A stretch of DNA of 16,257 nt, taken from positions 1 through 16,257 of the forward strand of contig JBLFWS010000064.1 of the NCBI GenBank assembly GCA_047611865.1. The letters run 5' to 3'. Shown here piece after piece: positions 2,471 through 16,257 of this stretch. The notes beneath the pieces were generated by a model that worked only from the letters and a program-made list of their open reading frames with translations, ran no database searches and was not told the DNA's origin. The stretch comes from Chlamydiales bacterium. GTDB lineage: Bacteria > Chlamydiota > Chlamydiia > Chlamydiales > JBDQID01. Made by a program: the position numbers and the translations under genes. Numbering within the stretch: the stretch's first letter is position 1; each line of letters opens with the position of its first letter.

Positions 2471-3182
2471 TTTTCCCTCCAGAGTTAAAAGATTCCTTCC
2501 GTTACTACTACTTCTTAGCTGTATGCTTCTGGCTTATATCTCCGGTATTGGGGACTTTCTTAATCTGGAGACTCTAAAACAACACCGGCAAGAACTTATT
2601 TCATTCGTAGAGAGTTACCCCCTTCTAGCTCCTATTACCTACATTTTATGCTATATCATCGCCACAGCCCTCTCCATACCAGGAGCTATCCTTCTTACGT
2701 TGACCGGTGGCTTTTTGTTCCCGCAGCCCTTCTGCACGATTTATACCATCACCGGAGCCTCCATTGGAGCTTGTATTATCTTTCTCATTGCCAGGACGAC
2801 CCTTGGTGATTCTTTAAAACAGAAGGCCGGGAAATTCATGAATAAAATGGAATCCGGCTTGAAAGAGAACGCCGTTAGTTACCTTCTATTCTTACGATTT
2901 GTCCCTATTTTCCCCTTTTGGGTTGCCAACTTAGCTCCTGCATTTTTCGGAGTAAGTTTTTTCACCTACGCGTGGACAACAGTTATTGGAATAACCCCAG
3001 GATCTTTTGTTTTTACTCAAGCAGGAGCAGGTTTAGGAGCCATATTAGATTCAGAAGAAAAATTCTCCGTATCCACGATACTCAACAATGATATGAAAAT
3101 TGCCTTACTTGCTTTAGGGATTTTTGCTTTAATTCCCATCCTATTGAAAAAACTCCAAAATAAGAATTCAGAAAATGATTGA
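2460..3182 (+). CDS. DedA/TVP38/TMEM64 (VTT domain) membrane protein
   Basis: Motifs SIPGAILLTLTGGFLF, GASIGACIIFLIAR and LLFLRFVPIFPFWVAN. Hydrophobic. Overlaps the upstream gene by 11 nt. Confidence 0.9.
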   Translation: MKNNFPSRVKRFLPLLLLLSCMLLAYISGIGDFLNLETLKQHRQELISFVESYPLLAPITYILCYIIATALSIPGAILLTLTGGFLFPQPFCTIYTITGASIGACIIFLIARTTLGDSLKQKAGKFMNKMESGLKENAVSYLLFLRFVPIFPFWVANLAPAFFGVSFFTYAWTTVIGITPGSFVFTQAGAGLGAILDSEEKFSVSTILNNDMKIALLALGIFALIPILLKKLQNKNSEND

Positions 3183-3768
3183 TTCCTACTACCGAGATAA
3201 ATACCAAGCTATTCTCGTCAGGCCTATCGTGAAAATAATCTCCCGTTCAACTACTATCCACCCTAAACTCGTTACCTTAGTTGCCTGTTGCTCTGGAATC
3301 CTCATCATCCCCCTATTGGCATTTTCTTACCCCTACACAGCCCTTATCTTCATGCTCATTTCTGGATATCTAGATACTTTCGACGGCAGCCTTGCCAGAG
3401 AAACTCATAAAGAATCTCCTCAAGGAGCCGTACTTGATATAATTTGTGACCGCATTGTGGAATTCAGCATTATTCTCGGCCTATATTTTGTCGATCCTGT
3501 TTCAAGGAGTCTTTTATGCCTATTCATGCTTGGTAGTGTACTAATCTGTATTACTTCTTTCCTTGTAGTCGGGATATTTATTGAAAATGCTACAAATAAA
3601 AGTTTTCACTACAGTCCAGGTCTAATGGAGCGCTCAGAAGCGTTCTGCCTCTTTGCTCTAATGATACTTTTCCCAAGCTACTTTTCTTGGTTCGCAAGTC
3701 TTTTCAGTATATTAGTGTTTTGGACAGCTCTGATAAGAGTAAAAGAATTTCAAGAAAATACCCCCTAA
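3175..3768 (+). CDS. CDP-alcohol phosphatidyltransferase family protein (YnjF-like)
   Basis: Signature DxxDGxxAR...GxxLDxxxD is present as DTFDGSLARETHKESPQGAVLDIICD, plus a C-terminal GLMERSE. Overlaps the upstream gene by 8 nt. Confidence 0.88.
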   Translation: MIDSYYRDKYQAILVRPIVKIISRSTTIHPKLVTLVACCSGILIIPLLAFSYPYTALIFMLISGYLDTFDGSLARETHKESPQGAVLDIICDRIVEFSIILGLYFVDPVSRSLLCLFMLGSVLICITSFLVVGIFIENATNKSFHYSPGLMERSEAFCLFALMILFPSYFSWFASLFSILVFWTALIRVKEFQENTP

Positions 3769-3951
3769 AGCGTGTTTTCAAATAGCGAAACGCTGCTTTT
3801 GGAACCTATTTTCGCACTTTTGGATCGCACCCAACTCACTTATTTGTCTGTTTTGTCGCATTGACACATCCTTCATGAGGAACAAAGTTCCATACACATC
3901 AAGCTAAGGTTCTAAGTGGCCGTAAGAGAAAGGATAAGATAAAATAATCCT

Positions 3952-4204
3952 TACCCACGAAGTGGGTTGCAGAAGGTAGCCCAGTGCAAGAGCGAGACAT
4001 GCAGCTCTGGGTATCTGAATAAACAAAATCTTAACCCTTGAAAAGGGTGATGGAAATGCTAAAACATCTAACGGGCTTAAGAGATTTCCAGCACCCTTTT
4101 CAAGAGTGCACAATTAAATTCGCACATAACCAGAGCTACGTGTCTCGGTCGCAAGCTCCCTCGCTCTTGCACTGGGCTATCTTCTATAACCCACTTCGTG
4201 GGTA
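3952..4204. repeat. Inverted repeat pairs C (3952-3996 / 4160-4204) and D (3993-4014 / 4126-4147)
   Basis: C matches 42/45 and D matches 19/22. The two are offset by a 16-nt indel on the right arm bounded by CTCG direct repeats. Confidence 0.95.
4037..4104. repeat. Innermost inverted repeat pair E: 4037-4057 / 4084-4104
   Basis: CTTGAAAAGGGTGATGGAAAT against ATTTCCAGCACCCTTTTCAAG, 20/21, with a 26-nt central loop. Confidence 0.95.
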
Positions 4205-4445
4205 TCTTCGCTTACACTTTTTATTTACGAATTCTTTGCGCTAAAATGTAAAATTACTTAATTTTCAGCAAAACAAATCGCTACAGATTTAATTTAATAT
4301 TTACCCAAACAACTCTTTTATGATCACTTACATTCTTAGCTTGATGCGTATGGAACTTCGTTCCTCATGAAGGCTTAACCAATGCCACAAAAGATCAAAA
4401 AAAAGCGTTTCGTAATTTTAATACACGACCTAGACTGTCCGTAGG

Positions 4446-5303
4446 CTATCTACAATCCAGAGAGAACTCTAAGACAAGTTGTTCATAAGCAGCACTCAAA
4501 TCTTCCTCGAAATCCAGATCTCGAGAAAACCGTCGGTCTTGGATCTTCGTCACAGCTTGAAAATGATGCATTGAATTGCATAGAAAGACATAAGCATCAT
4601 CTGGTATTTCAGATATGGTCGCTTTGACATAATGTACATTCAGGCCCAATGAAGCTTCTGCAGCACTAAGTATCGTCATCAAAGCAACACCAAATGATAA
4701 AGGAAGATCCGGGTCAGGCGTATACAGAAATCCATCCTTTACCCAAAATATATTGGAAAAAGAAGCCTCAAGGATCTGGCCTTCTGGGTTAGTTAGTAGA
4801 AAATCATCAACACCTTTGACTTTCGCTTCAGAAGAAAAACCACACCTCCCTGATATTACGACACTATGAACACGAGAAAAAGACTCCTCTGTTGAAAGAG
4901 AAAGCATCCCCAAGCTCAACGGTTCTCTAAAACTCTTCGGGGTTTCTCTGACAGTCATAAGAAAATGGGAAAAAGATCTAAAAGCTCTATCTTCTCTTAT
5001 TTCTTCACGATCTATTGCAAATAATTTAAGCTCCCAAATCCCCTTCACCGCATTATTAAAATGGAGTAGGTCTGCAACCCAGTGCTCCATAACGAAGGGA
5101 GAGTACATAGAAATCTCATGACAATGGGTATCAAACACTCTCAAATGAGTGACGAAACTTTCAACTACACCATTGTCTATTCTAAGAGTGGAATAAATCC
5201 CCTCATCATCGAGGGAGAAACCATCGAAGATGGGGCTTCTTAACTTATCAACAGTTACGAAGACCCCATCCATAAAGGCTATTTGATTATTTTCAGAACC
5301 CAT
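4446..5303 (-). CDS. Aminotransferase class IV / PabC (aminodeoxychorismate lyase)-like protein, apparently degenerate
   Basis: Fold-IV motif DDFLLTNPEGQILEASFSNIFWVKDGFLYTP and ...DDAYVFLCNSM...VTKI. Starts 12 nt downstream of the nqrF stop. Confidence 0.75.
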   Translation of the reverse strand: MGSENNQIAFMDGVFVTVDKLRSPIFDGFSLDDEGIYSTLRIDNGVVESFVTHLRVFDTHCHEISMYSPFVMEHWVADLLHFNNAVKGIWELKLFAIDREEIREDRAFRSFSHFLMTVRETPKSFREPLSLGMLSLSTEESFSRVHSVVISGRCGFSSEAKVKGVDDFLLTNPEGQILEASFSNIFWVKDGFLYTPDPDLPLSFGVALMTILSAAEASLGLNVHYVKATISEIPDDAYVFLCNSMHHFQAVTKIQDRRFSRDLDFEEDLSAAYEQLVLEFSLDCR

Positions 5304-11581: not shown

Positions 11582-14500
11582 ATGAAAAAAACTTTACTAC
11601 TTCTCTTAGTACTTCTACTATCCCTTCCAGCTTGGACAATCTCCCAAGAAGCCGATAGTAAAAATGAACAGGCTATTGAAAACTATTCCGGGGCTTATCA
11701 ACTATTTCCCGTTGACGGCCCTATCGAAGTAAAGACTCACCCCGGCTACCTATATACCCATGTTGAAGGGATCGCACCCAATTGGAAATTAGGAACATTA
11801 GGTGAAGTTCTAAAAAAACACGAATCTGTCATGGGTGATGGTACTGTTAAAGTTTTCAGAGCCTCGATAAATTCAGGCTTTCATGTTGTTGAAGAGCAGC
11901 ATGCCATCGGCACCCTTCTCTTAAAGTTAAAAGGCGATCACCGTGAAAATTTTCGCTATTTTATTCGCCAAGGGCCCGTGACTGTTGCCGAGGGAGAAGT
12001 TAACGAATCACAACTCGACGCCATTCCAGAAATTAACTTGCCCCATGGTGGTTATACTTTTCAGGCTATTTCCCAAGGTTTTGCCACTCCCCAGCCAATA
12101 CCTTTCAACATTACTAAAGAAACTACCCCTGTAAGCCTTGATGTCTCTCTTAATATCGATGATGTTCTTCTCCGCGTCTCCACCACCCCCAATAACATTA
12201 CCCATGGTAGAAAAGGTATTCTTCGTAACATCTCCGTTGATGAAGAGAAAGTTATTTGGTCTCGTGAAATAGACCTCAGCGGAAATATCATTGCCATCGA
12301 AGAGGGACAATATACCCTCGAATTCCCTAAAGTCGATGGCTACGATGGCCCAGGAAGAACCAATATAATGGGGCGTTTCAACCTAACTTCCGTTAACTCT
12401 CCATATAACATCATCGGAAAATACAGCGTTCCACAAAGTCGCCTTGTTGTTCGTTATAGCACGGGTCCCAAACAAGAACGAATCGACAGAGTTCGCTTTT
12501 GGGTTATTGACAATGATGGCAATCGCTTCATGTATCCTAAAGAATTTGAGTACTACGATGATCCCGAAACTTTTGAGCGCGAAATTGTCGTGGAGCCATT
12601 AAAACCTGGTAACTACACCCTAGAATTTCTTGTACCCAACGCCGATGGTTTATTTCCTATGGTGCCCAAGCACGAGCTGAGCATATTGGAAGGTAAGACC
12701 ACAAGAATCAATCAACCCATCATTCCACAGTATGGATCCATCTCAGCCAACATTGACATACAACCCCGAAAAGAAGTCATCTCAATAACAGAAGCCATAG
12801 ATAGCGACACCTTCAAAAAAATTCCTTTTATCGCCGTCTTCGACGAAAAAGGTGATGTAAAAGCATCTTCCGCAACAGGAGAGCTCACCGCTGACTACCT
12901 TGTCCCCGGAGAGTATACCCTTGTTTTCGGAGACCTCGACTTCTATATCACGCCTCCAGAGACCCGCGTAAGCATAGAACCTAGTGAACGTATCGGCCCA
13001 GTCACAGGCCTTTACGCTACTGAAGCTGTGGAGCTTTCTATCGACACCAACAAACCCGATCAAAAGTGGACCCTCCGCCATCGCGACAAAGTTTTGCTCT
13101 CCAATATCGGTGACAGCGGCCCCCTCTTCCTTCCTCCTGGAGAAGATTATTCCATCGAGGCAGATGACCTTGCAAGTTTTGATGTGGACGTTGCCCCCGG
13201 TGAAGAATTTGACTTGATTTTCGAAGAGCCCGTCCACGCCCTCATTACTTATACCCCTGAGTACGGCAGTCTTTCTTTTGATAGCCCCATTGAGCTTGTT
13301 GATGAAGATACCATTACCATTCAGTTCACTTCTCATGACGGTGGCACCCATCAGTCTCGCTCCTTTTACGAAGAAAACGGAAGACTCTTTTGGGAAGAGC
13401 AAAATTTCCCTGCAGGATCCTACATCGTTAATTACGATGTCCCTCCCTATTACGCCCCAATGGACGCCGAACACATTGTCATTGAAAAAGGACAATATCT
13501 CCGAGTCACTCCCCAATTTAAGCTAAACCGGGCCCTCTTTGTTCATACCAATAATCCTGAGGCCCTTTTCACCCTCACCTCTGAGGATGGGAAGAAGCAA
13601 GTTGATGGTGGTGGAATGGAACACACCTTTGCCCAATTGCTACCAGGAAAATACACTCTCAGTTTTTCTGCTACGGATTTAAACAATGTCATCGTTCCAG
13701 AAGATATTGAAGTCACGATCCCTAAAAAAATTGATGTTCCCGTCGAGGCGAACTATTCTTATAGTGCTCATCTTACCGTTACTTCTAACGTCAAAACATT
13801 TCCGATCTCTATTACAAATTTAAGTAAAGGTCCCGACAACAAACGAATGGAAGTTGTCGAGAACAAAGGGAGAACTTTCACTCTTCCTGAGGGAAAATAT
13901 CGAATAAATTTTCATGCCCTCGAAGGAGACTGGAACGGTCGCTTTGGAGAGAATCACCCCGATCCTGTAGAGATTGAATTAGAAGCCACCCAAACCGAAT
14001 ATATCCATGCCGTGTATGAAGCCAATAGAGGAAGCCTCGCAGTAACCAGCAACTTAAATGAAGCCTCCTATACCGTCTGGGATGTCTCCGAAGCCGAACC
14101 ACTTGTTATTGGAGCTTTTAGAGGAAAGCACTCCGTTATCCCTCTCACATTTGTTGGGAAATACAAAGTTGTGTTTGATGAGCTTCCCAACCACAGAACT
14201 CCCGAGTCTGCCACGATTCAAATCAGTCCCAATAAAAGAGAGACGGTAGGTGGCGAGTACAACCCCCTTCAAAAAGTAGTTGCCGTTCCCGCTGGTCCGA
14301 CTATTATTGGGGATACATTCGGTGATGGAGGGATGGATGAAAAACCCAGCCGAACAGTTGATTTGAATGCTTTCTCTATCGCTGTTTACGAAGTTACAAA
14401 CGACCAATACGCTGAATGGCTAACACGAGCAAAGAAAGAAGGTAAGGTCGAGTACCTTACCAAAAAGGGACTGAAGGGACAAGTCAGAGACCTCGAAGGT

Positions 14501-15190
14501 CGCCTCCTTTTTGAAACACTAGAAGCTGATAGCGATAGCCAGATCGAAGCAGAAGAAAGAGAAGGCACTGTATTTTTCACTCCGATAATGGGTAAAGAAA
14601 ACCACCCTGTTATAGAAGTGTCCTGGTATGGCGCCACCATGTATTGTCAAGATAATGGTTTTCGCCTTCCGACAGAAACTGAGTGGGAGAAAGCCGCAGG
14701 TATTGCCCCCACACCCTCAGGCCGTCCCCTGAAAAAATACTACTATGGATTTGGAAGAGATCATATTTCCAAAACTTTAGCCAACTATACGGAAGAGTAC
14801 GGAAAGATCCGGACGAGTCAGGTCAGGACCTCCCCTGTGGGATTTTACGATGGAATCAGTATTATCGCTTTCAATGAAGACGTCCTCAAAGACCTCATGA
14901 ATAAGCCAGAGATGATTCATACATCCTACGGCAGCAATCTTTCCAAAAGTCCCGCAGGCTGTTACGATATGAGTGGTAATGTCCGGGAGTGGGTCAACGA
15001 TTGGTATGACCCTGATTATTATAACTATATCGAAAGTCTCAATCCTATAGGACCCGGCCACGGAAGCTTAAAGGTTACTAAAGGAGGCTCTTACAACAGC
15101 GTTCCTTATGAATTGCGAACATCTTCAAGGATGCCACTGCCTCCAGAAAACACCGATTCACTCACAGGCTTTAGGATTGTTGTAGAATAG
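11582..15190 (+). CDS. Large secreted protein: signal peptide, ~9 PEGA/Ig-like beta-sandwich repeats, and a C-terminal formylglycine-generating enzyme (FGE/SUMF1)-like domain
   Basis: N-terminus MKKTLLLLLVLLLSLPAW. Recurrent xPGxYxxxF motifs. FGE-family motifs YEVTNDQY, HPVIEVSW, RLPTETEWEKAA, GCYDMSGNVREW, KGGSY and TGFR. Confidence 0.85.
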   Translation: MKKTLLLLLVLLLSLPAWTISQEADSKNEQAIENYSGAYQLFPVDGPIEVKTHPGYLYTHVEGIAPNWKLGTLGEVLKKHESVMGDGTVKVFRASINSGFHVVEEQHAIGTLLLKLKGDHRENFRYFIRQGPVTVAEGEVNESQLDAIPEINLPHGGYTFQAISQGFATPQPIPFNITKETTPVSLDVSLNIDDVLLRVSTTPNNITHGRKGILRNISVDEEKVIWSREIDLSGNIIAIEEGQYTLEFPKVDGYDGPGRTNIMGRFNLTSVNSPYNIIGKYSVPQSRLVVRYSTGPKQERIDRVRFWVIDNDGNRFMYPKEFEYYDDPETFEREIVVEPLKPGNYTLEFLVPNADGLFPMVPKHELSILEGKTTRINQPIIPQYGSISANIDIQPRKEVISITEAIDSDTFKKIPFIAVFDEKGDVKASSATGELTADYLVPGEYTLVFGDLDFYITPPETRVSIEPSERIGPVTGLYATEAVELSIDTNKPDQKWTLRHRDKVLLSNIGDSGPLFLPPGEDYSIEADDLASFDVDVAPGEEFDLIFEEPVHALITYTPEYGSLSFDSPIELVDEDTITIQFTSHDGGTHQSRSFYEENGRLFWEEQNFPAGSYIVNYDVPPYYAPMDAEHIVIEKGQYLRVTPQFKLNRALFVHTNNPEALFTLTSEDGKKQVDGGGMEHTFAQLLPGKYTLSFSATDLNNVIVPEDIEVTIPKKIDVPVEANYSYSAHLTVTSNVKTFPISITNLSKGPDNKRMEVVENKGRTFTLPEGKYRINFHALEGDWNGRFGENHPDPVEIELEATQTEYIHAVYEANRGSLAVTSNLNEASYTVWDVSEAEPLVIGAFRGKHSVIPLTFVGKYKVVFDELPNHRTPESATIQISPNKRETVGGEYNPLQKVVAVPAGPTIIGDTFGDGGMDEKPSRTVDLNAFSIAVYEVTNDQYAEWLTRAKKEGKVEYLTKKGLKGQVRDLEGRLLFETLEADSDSQIEAEEREGTVFFTPIMGKENHPVIEVSWYGATMYCQDNGFRLPTETEWEKAAGIAPTPSGRPLKKYYYGFGRDHISKTLANYTEEYGKIRTSQVRTSPVGFYDGISIIAFNEDVLKDLMNKPEMIHTSYGSNLSKSPAGCYDMSGNVREWVNDWYDPDYYNYIESLNPIGPGHGSLKVTKGGSYNSVPYELRTSSRMPLPPENTDSLTGFRIVVE

Positions 15191-15794: not shown

Positions 15795-16257
15795 ATGAGT
15801 AGTTTTGGGGAAATAAGTAGAAACCCACCACCATCCATCATTAGTGGAGCTTGGGATGCTGACAAGAAAGAACTTGTAGTCAAAAAGGGTGGTCATGCCT
15901 TTAAGGTTCTGACTCTTGATAACCTTAAAGAGACGGACATGAAAGGAGCTAATGTCCAAGAAACAGCAACTAAAATAGCCAAGCTGTTTATGAAATATCA
16001 AGACACAGCAGCCGGACTTGGAATTGCAGGAGTCGGGAAGGAACTACAAGAAGGTGATACTCTCAGTGCAAAGGAACTTTCAAGAGAAGGTGGTACTTTA
16101 ATCGACCACCAAGCTGAAGTGGCCGCCACCTGCGCCAAGATTATGAAGGATATTCTAGGCCATATTCATGGTACAGCAGGATCTGATGGAGAAAGCACAG
16201 GAGGAGCAGTTCCTGGCGGAACTCCCCATAGTCCTCAAGGAGGAACTACAGGAGTCG
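15795..16257 (+). CDS. Hypothetical protein, 3'-truncated; candidate type III secretion substrate
   Basis: Not in the ORF track because there is no stop in the window. AAAGGGA SD at 15781-15787, ATG 15795, open for 154 codons to the window end: MSSFGEISRNPPPSIISGAWDADKKELVVKKGGHAFKV...GSDGESTGGAVPGGTPHSPQGGTTGV. Confidence 0.75.
   Translation, partial: MSSFGEISRNPPPSIISGAWDADKKELVVKKGGHAFKVLTLDNLKETDMKGANVQETATKIAKLFMKYQDTAAGLGIAGVGKELQEGDTLSAKELSREGGTLIDHQAEVAATCAKIMKDILGHIHGTAGSDGESTGGAVPGGTPHSPQGGTTGV

Follow-up and report, generated by a model that had tools for sequence, protein, structure and literature searches.

A giant intergenic fold-back in a Chlamydiales bacterium as a probable Russian-doll composite of four non-autonomous mobile elements

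The window (the whole 16,257-nt stretch of Chlamydiales DNA analyzed here) contains a fold-back at positions 3768-4430, in the gap that separates a CDP-alcohol phosphatidyltransferase gene from a convergent gene for a class IV aminotransferase, and the question is how so long and concentric a symmetry could arise there. The five inverted-repeat pairs described in a first-pass annotation were reproduced with exactly the same counts of Watson-Crick pairs, namely 20/24 in pair A (3771-3794/4404-4427), 64/79 in pair B (3851-3929/4314-4392), 42/45 in pair C (3952-3996/4160-4204), 19/22 in pair D (3993-4014/4126-4147) and 20/21 in pair E (4037-4057/4084-4104), and a repeat search recovered the same concentric pairs. 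Mismatches across the five pairs comprise 8 G.T, 7 A.C and 11 others, i.e., those of the wobble type occur on both strands, as had been noticed. The predicted minimum free energy of the fold-back is -272.5 kcal/mol on the plus strand and -297.7 kcal/mol on the minus strand (z = -17.7 and -21.6, respectively), none of 20 shuffles being as stable on either strand. In agreement with the annotation, no enzyme gene lies in cis. According to our analysis the stack consists of four small gene-less mobile elements of three transposase classes (Table 1), and the gap is very probably a Russian-doll composite, in which each of the four non-autonomous elements is symmetric on its own and the nest was shaped by hairpin targeting and an interior deletion.

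Table 1. Features of the fold-back (positions in the window)
Feature	Position	Strand	Remark
Left TA target duplication of the outer MITE	3766..3767	+	TA on both sides in 35/44 paired family copies
Layer 1 left: terminal repeat plus left half of alpha, a 163-bp MITE	3768..3849	+	Dispersed family copies
Layer 2 left: outer beta-doublet arm with a GAA-type hairpin at its end	3850..3890	+	
Layer 3: gamma, 462-bp MITE with IS4-family (IS231-subgroup) ends	3891..4352	.	18-bp terminal inverted repeats
Layer 4 left: three-hairpin unit delta	3953..4048	-	Middle stem branched, 16-nt deletion
Layer 4 right: second delta unit, inverted	4091..4203	+	
Layer 2 right: beta hairpin and outer arm	4353..4392	+	11-mer 4353-4363
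Layer 1 right: outer MITE end, matching the left one in type and forming pair A with it	4393..4430	+	
Right TA target duplication of the outer MITE	4431..4432	+	

Pair B is composed of two repeats meeting at 3890/3891 and 4352/4353 (33/40 and 31/39 pairs), and pairs C, D and E form a single ~120-nt unit as one gapped inverted repeat, the offset between C and D being due to the 16-nt deletion in the left copy of this unit. The shells A, B, C/D and E, previously regarded as unrelated to each other and built of five pairs, are thus replaced by four layers, with C, D and E belonging to one unit present in two copies. Each layer has other copies in the source genome, and the layers occur there singly or renested: alpha alone, intact beta within alpha-type ends (C16), gamma alone (C39 and C84), gamma in beta (C40) and delta free (C12). 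The arms were therefore found alone and in other nestings, as the earlier idea of a DNA-level nest of non-autonomous palindromic elements implied; its alternative, a single composite fold-back element, holds only weakly, insofar as the ends of the outer MITE could mobilize everything they enclose.

In the outermost layer, the left TA and the first base of the element make up the TAA stop codon (3766-3768) of the CDP-alcohol phosphatidyltransferase gene, and the stop codon of the convergent aminotransferase gene (4446-4448) lies 13 bp beyond the right TA. The segment 3771-3849 is 72-87% identical to many dispersed copies in the source genome, where the alpha end pattern has 102 matches. Among the 44 paired copies, 19 have the basic form of 161-163 bp and 35 possess TA on both sides, within YTAR; alpha thus displays the terminal inverted repeats and the YTAR duplication of an IS5-family MITE. 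The end pattern was detected in 2 of 400 other chlamydial genomes (one match each, unpaired and inside long open frames; a further scan scored 400 of 401 genomes), in two metagenome matches, also unpaired, and in 10 viral matches, and a plasmid search gave four short weak matches, the one in Bacillus being an unannotated end-like sequence. An autonomous transposase with alpha's own ends was found neither in this genome nor in other chlamydiae, and the profiles PF13586 and PF13359, applied to the search for the parent, had no matches in the source genome. Nearest to the alpha ends is an IS5 fragment on C236 (6/20 mismatches), and IS5 ends in other chlamydiae show 5/20 mismatches. IS630, listed in Table 1 of PMC2577343 as likewise duplicating TA, in CTAG, is represented in the source genome by 12 loci, whose own ends never match alpha. 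Since the IS5-type ends are similar to those of alpha and not identical, alpha is likely a member of the IS5 family with a parent not found, and the enzyme moving it would presumably be of this kind. A transposase beside an alpha end on C18 was ruled out as the parent, as it carries other ends; we take it to resemble an ISAs1-type insertion. The junction of alpha with beta is a mosaic without clear duplication. Alpha-type ends also surround ~1.1 kb of unique, apparently coding sequence at G000 C163:2666-3811, a possible gene capture, and an element of ~200-220 bp with apparent 9-bp direct repeats, the sequence of which also adjoins a broken Y1 gene, occupies varied positions in the 163-bp MITE (G000 C51:1578-1958, C41, C4:23888 and C103).

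Intact beta was found at C16:20352-20755. In the window, the 11-mer target 3880-3890 abuts gamma at the left, and the 11-mer abutting it at the right is its inverse, with no direct copy. These flanking inverted 11-mers are beta's two outer hairpins. In intact beta, 209 bp lie between these hairpins; in the window this interior is absent, and gamma stands in its place. The right beta/gamma junction recurs at C191 and its mirror (left) junction at C198. The suggestion that elements were successively inserted into the centre of earlier ones did not hold, as gamma replaced the interior of beta between inverted hairpins and, at C40, lies off-centre inside an intact beta. Insertion of gamma into a collapsed single-hairpin beta, such as that at C140, was rejected, because it predicts a direct and not an inverted 11-mer. 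The beta arms gave no signal of homogenization (33.3/40 within a locus versus 32.8/40 between loci, six pairs), and the beta of C40, missed by the pattern, appeared homogenized by eye. Beyond its last hairpin the beta arm has 29 further nucleotides, for which the four-layer explanation does not account. At seven other places (G000 C9, C97, C20, C36, C70, C205 and C270) a sequence judged by eye to be group II intron-like occupies one and the same spot in the beta centre.

The terminal inverted repeats of gamma are located at 3891-3908 and 4335-4352, and the element is 91% identical to its counterpart at C39. Both ends in the window, as well as those of the C39 and C84 copies, carry the signature CAT-------AA--TAA, given in Table 1 of PMC2266710 for the IS231 subgroup together with 10-12-bp duplications. 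Direct repeats flank gamma at C39 (11 bp), C84 (10 bp) and C40 (10/11, an 11-bp near-direct repeat), and the window copy has inverted flanks. The transposase of gamma belongs, by profile matches, to the IS4 family: at C135 a gamma-type end precedes a transposase ORF recognized by NF033592 with 156 bits (cut-off 115) in two frames, at L084 a 459-aa frame between gamma-type ends scores 191 bits on the same profile, and further pieces of the IS4-family element are present at C93, C159 and C173. Gamma-related ends occur in named chlamydial records, too. The interior of gamma is asymmetric, and the same in C39 and C84; in C84 a single hairpin stands where delta sits in the window, leaving a clean gap of ~236 nt. 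The unequal spacers between pairs B and C, measured as annotated (22 nt at the left versus 109 nt at the right), simply represent this interior of gamma.

The targets of gamma are 11-mers centred on small hairpin loops. Eighteen of the 26 pattern-matched ends in the source genome, about four of which are chance matches, are adjacent to an 11-mer in which 3 or more of 4 pairs are formed, versus 5.7% in the background, in agreement with the GGG-N5-CCC target that PMC2577343, in the part cited here, reports for IS231A. Among at least 124 loci scanned for foreign gamma-type elements, 42 had full flanks (four edge cases were excluded). These 42, counted among the matches listed, fall into 18 with direct repeats of 9-11 bp, 5 with direct repeats of 19-21 bp, 7 with inverted flanks and 12 of neither class, and shuffled flank pairs were inverted in only 4 of 1722 cases. 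Seven loci in Chloroflexota and Blastocatellia (L056, L084, L092, L093, L104, L110 and L122) combine IS231-type ends with 19-21-bp direct repeats, each duplicating a whole REP-like palindrome, i.e., approximately two helical turns where one is usual. In another chlamydia, L073:2501-2866 and L130:2424-2950 are IS231-ended MITEs in the form of near-perfect palindromes with ~170-bp arms, the latter being, in addition, enclosed by inverted Y1-type repeat arms. With its ~530 bp, L130 represents an independent fold-back, constructed in the manner of that in the window.

The innermost layer is a delta doublet with outer hairpins at 3953-3967 and 4189-4203 and inner ones at 4034-4048 and 4091-4109 (left and right unit, respectively). 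Delta occurs elsewhere free (C12) and in a different MITE (C19, C148 and C12). Between loci, left units resemble each other at 93-97% and right units at 93-98%, whereas the left and right units of one locus share just 81-85%. This left-left and right-right clustering indicates that the doublet is copied as a block, as a passenger, and that its arms do not track each other; the cross-locus comparison revealed no arm-to-arm compensation between delta copies. At G000 C198, C191, C73, C147 and C177 an element with GAGGCT-type ends interrupts delta at hairpin loops, being followed by a DDE transposase on C198 and C147.

Beta and delta share one unit plan: a hairpin, a ~20-nt spacer, a CCYAG stem, ~10 nt and a hairpin with a TTC/GAA loop. 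The plan flanks both Y1 genes of the source genome that carry such repeats. By a descriptor of the three-hairpin unit, 24 of 70 Y1 loci have it pointing outward, none inward, and 46 lack it, a proportion that is partly circular, because the descriptor was derived from these same loci; on the reversed genome it found 0 units versus 13. The right delta is 77.5% identical over 120 nt to a repeat adjoining a Y1 gene of G214 (E 2e-19) and 76.7% identical to a copy 10 bp from the G214 Y1 gene (L261; E 2e-18), and beta resembles sequence flanking a G020 Y1 gene (72% over 87 nt). The L261 ORF (150 aa) carries the Y---Q--HH and WQ motifs characteristic of subclass 1.2, the Y motif is present at 67 of the 70 Y1 loci, and the Y1 partners of delta and beta in other genomes bear the subclass 1.2 Y---Q--HH signature. 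The local hairpins covary: in 11 units from four genomes, both partners have changed in 8 of 22 pairs (0 of 500 shuffles), a figure inflated by related sequences. Loops of the C-GAA-G type are stable DNA mini-hairpins, and those observed here fit a single-stranded DNA substrate. Considering these sequence relations, we infer that a Y1 enzyme acted on beta and delta. The source assembly contains five Y1 matches, and neither beta nor delta flanks any of them; no Y1 relatives were found in viral contigs. In G000 (C30, C18, C100, C14 and C24; L001), three units flank an intact Y1 gene of subclass 1.2, and gene-less inverted doublets of this L001 unit occur elsewhere. In the table of PMC6006769, TnpA-Y1 subclass 1.2 is entered as 'REP: no'.

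The order of events, and the route by which the interior of beta was lost, may be reconstructed as follows. The three-hairpin repeat would normally flank IS200-like Y1 (HUH) genes of subclass 1.2, and beta and delta doublets would arise as gene-less ends of such Y1 units, enter DDE-type MITEs and then spread with them. An IS231-type element that targets 11-mers centred on small hairpin loops would find in a doublet two inverted targets. Insertion at one beta hairpin, followed by a second event at its mirror partner, would leave one gamma between the outer arms, the second event removing the 209-bp interior of beta either by a local hop with recombination or by a single aberrant insertion; deletions at IS junctions through local hopping are documented in the part of PMC5009759 cited here. 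The IS5-type ends would surround the whole, with their TA target lying within a stop codon, where the insertion would do no harm. The result is concentric because all layers are inverted repeats and the deletion ended at mirror sites, so the long rod would be a by-product, and the symmetry as a whole most plausibly a side effect of hairpin targeting and of deletion between inverted targets.

The two-step route competes with a one-step capture, in which an IS231-type transpososome engages two hairpin half-targets in a single reaction, the inverted flanks and 19-21-bp duplications being its direct products. This would account for the two length clusters of the listed duplications, 9-11 bp (roughly one helical turn) and 19-21 bp (roughly two), for the copying of whole palindromes by the long ones (the seven loci listed), for inverted flanks in 7 of the 42 listed elements and for the co-occurrence of a direct (L073) and an inverted (L130) form of one MITE in one genome, and PMC5009759, as far as cited here, leaves a single aberrant insertion possible for such junctions. 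However, sequence cannot separate it from two insertions with recombination, and the long duplications belong to other phyla and other transposases, none being present in the source genome; we consider one-step capture rather unlikely. A broader proposal is speculative, and we rate it as somewhat doubtful: subclass 1.2 Y1 would be an unrecognized REP-like system, its gene-less doublets persisting enzyme-free inside DDE MITEs, and IS231-type transposases would read hairpins as two flexible half-targets (one turn, two turns or mirror hairpins), repeatedly building concentric giant fold-backs.

It is quite improbable that selection maintains the rod, be it as a structured RNA or as a bidirectional terminator or RNase III substrate serving both convergent operons, despite its very stable fold on both strands, its position (beginning at one stop codon and ending 15 bp from the other) and the finding of 0 terminator-like sites in 3700-4500, where 0.8 are expected. 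A TA inside a stop codon at 31 of 142 alpha-type ends, versus 1.3% of YTAG sites, could be read in the same sense, but this bias is explained by insertion at TAG/TAA being harmless. Moreover, the wobble-type mismatches are even between strands, the composite is specific to the source genome, Rfam gave four sub-threshold miRNA-hairpin matches far below the gathering score, and arm-to-arm compensation is absent: covariation, which the annotation had proposed to look for, is confined to the local hairpins. An RNA role of the rod thus appears to draw no support beyond the predicted folding energy. Still less probable is that the symmetry stems from inverted duplication at the locus (fold-back template switching) or from repeat misassembly. 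The near-perfect palindromic MITEs of L073 and L130 and a motif typical of right arms in the window's left beta arm point that way, and the whole element is spanned by no listed contig piece of four Logan runs, one of which may be the source sample. On the other hand, the arms are just 80-93% complementary, at other loci the left and the right version are each passed on separately, and the interior of gamma is asymmetric. The left junctions lie on one contig in three runs (3000-3972 is covered with zero differences in three of the four, and 4408-5200 in two), and the longest exact match of the element elsewhere in the genome is just 77 nt, which makes an assembly chimera unlikely. No joint skipping the element was detected among the contigs of the four runs. 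An empty site in relatives, which the annotation had proposed to look for, did not turn up either: in a comparison with 40 relatives, matches never extended beyond the gamma ends, and no close relative was found. The source assembly is 95.5% complete in 272 contigs. Outside the fold-back, the window encodes a 1202-aa protein (11582-15190) with a probable signal peptide, a C-terminal FGE-sulfatase domain and a long central part in which all Pfam matches are weak or below threshold, a 103-aa charged protein (622-933) and, after a ~600-bp AT-rich gap, a partial ORF (15795-16257), the last two having no Pfam match.

All parts of the stack belong to, or work like, known kinds: an IS5-type MITE, an IS231-type MITE and REPIN/TIRtron-like doublets. 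Gamma shares ends, GG-N-CC targets and, in its copies outside the window, 10-11-bp duplications with the IS231 subgroup of the IS4 family, MIC231 and IS186 of E. coli, and resembles the MIC231 derivatives of IS231, gene-less forms mobilized in trans, as far as described in the cited parts of these sources (PMC2266710, PMC6199540, PMC5009759 and PMC2577343), where the subgroup is reported as nearly restricted to Firmicutes, whereas gamma resides in a chlamydia. Gamma also differs in that its targets include the non-G-rich hairpins of Y1 repeats, unlike the GG-N-CC palindromes of IS231, and in that its cargo is a hairpin doublet, not a gene; the inverted flanks and 19-21-bp duplications of its relatives fall outside the 10-12 bp tabulated for IS231 (PMC2266710, Table 1). 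As in REPIN/RAYT, TIRtron/TIRYT and TnpA-Y1 1.2 systems, in the portions of the reports consulted (PMC6006769, PMC3733652 and 10.1101/2021.07.10.451892), a Y1 HUH gene lies between inverted repeats and gene-less doublets are dispersed between genes. Beta and delta are, like REPINs, two inverted palindromic units with a short spacer scattered intergenically, but their units are of ~100-120 nt with three hairpins, not single-hairpin REPs of 20-65 nt, no GTAG/GTGG foot is conserved in alignments A1 and A2, and no cognate RAYT (group 2/3) was seen in the 95.5%-complete assembly; unlike REPIN and TIRtron doublets, they ride as passengers of DDE MITEs. Alpha has the short terminal inverted repeats, the TA in YTAR and the ~100 ends per genome of IS5-family (YTAR) or IS630-type MITEs, yet differs from them in the missing parent with the same ends, the mosaic of half-elements and the large nested cargo. 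Landing of one mobile element on the hairpin (REP) of another is reported for IS1397, IS621 and IS1594 in the cited part of PMC3184786, as for gamma; in the window, in contrast, four layers stack and a deletion between inverted targets yields a concentric fold-back. In the open-access literature surveyed, we found no description of these motifs and this nesting, of three-hairpin repeats for subclass 1.2, of doublets in DDE MITEs, or of recurrent inverted flanks and 19-21-bp duplications for IS231-type ends.

Taken together, these results provide a traceable recipe by which very long intergenic fold-backs can be built without selection for RNA, which is of importance to ncRNA screens, as these would score the region at z near -20. 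They offer a concrete three-hairpin candidate substrate for the uncharacterized Y1 enzymes of subclass 1.2 and raise the question of its recognition, together with that of flexible, hairpin-guided target spacing (10-11 versus 19-21 bp, or two mirror sites) in IS231-type transposases.
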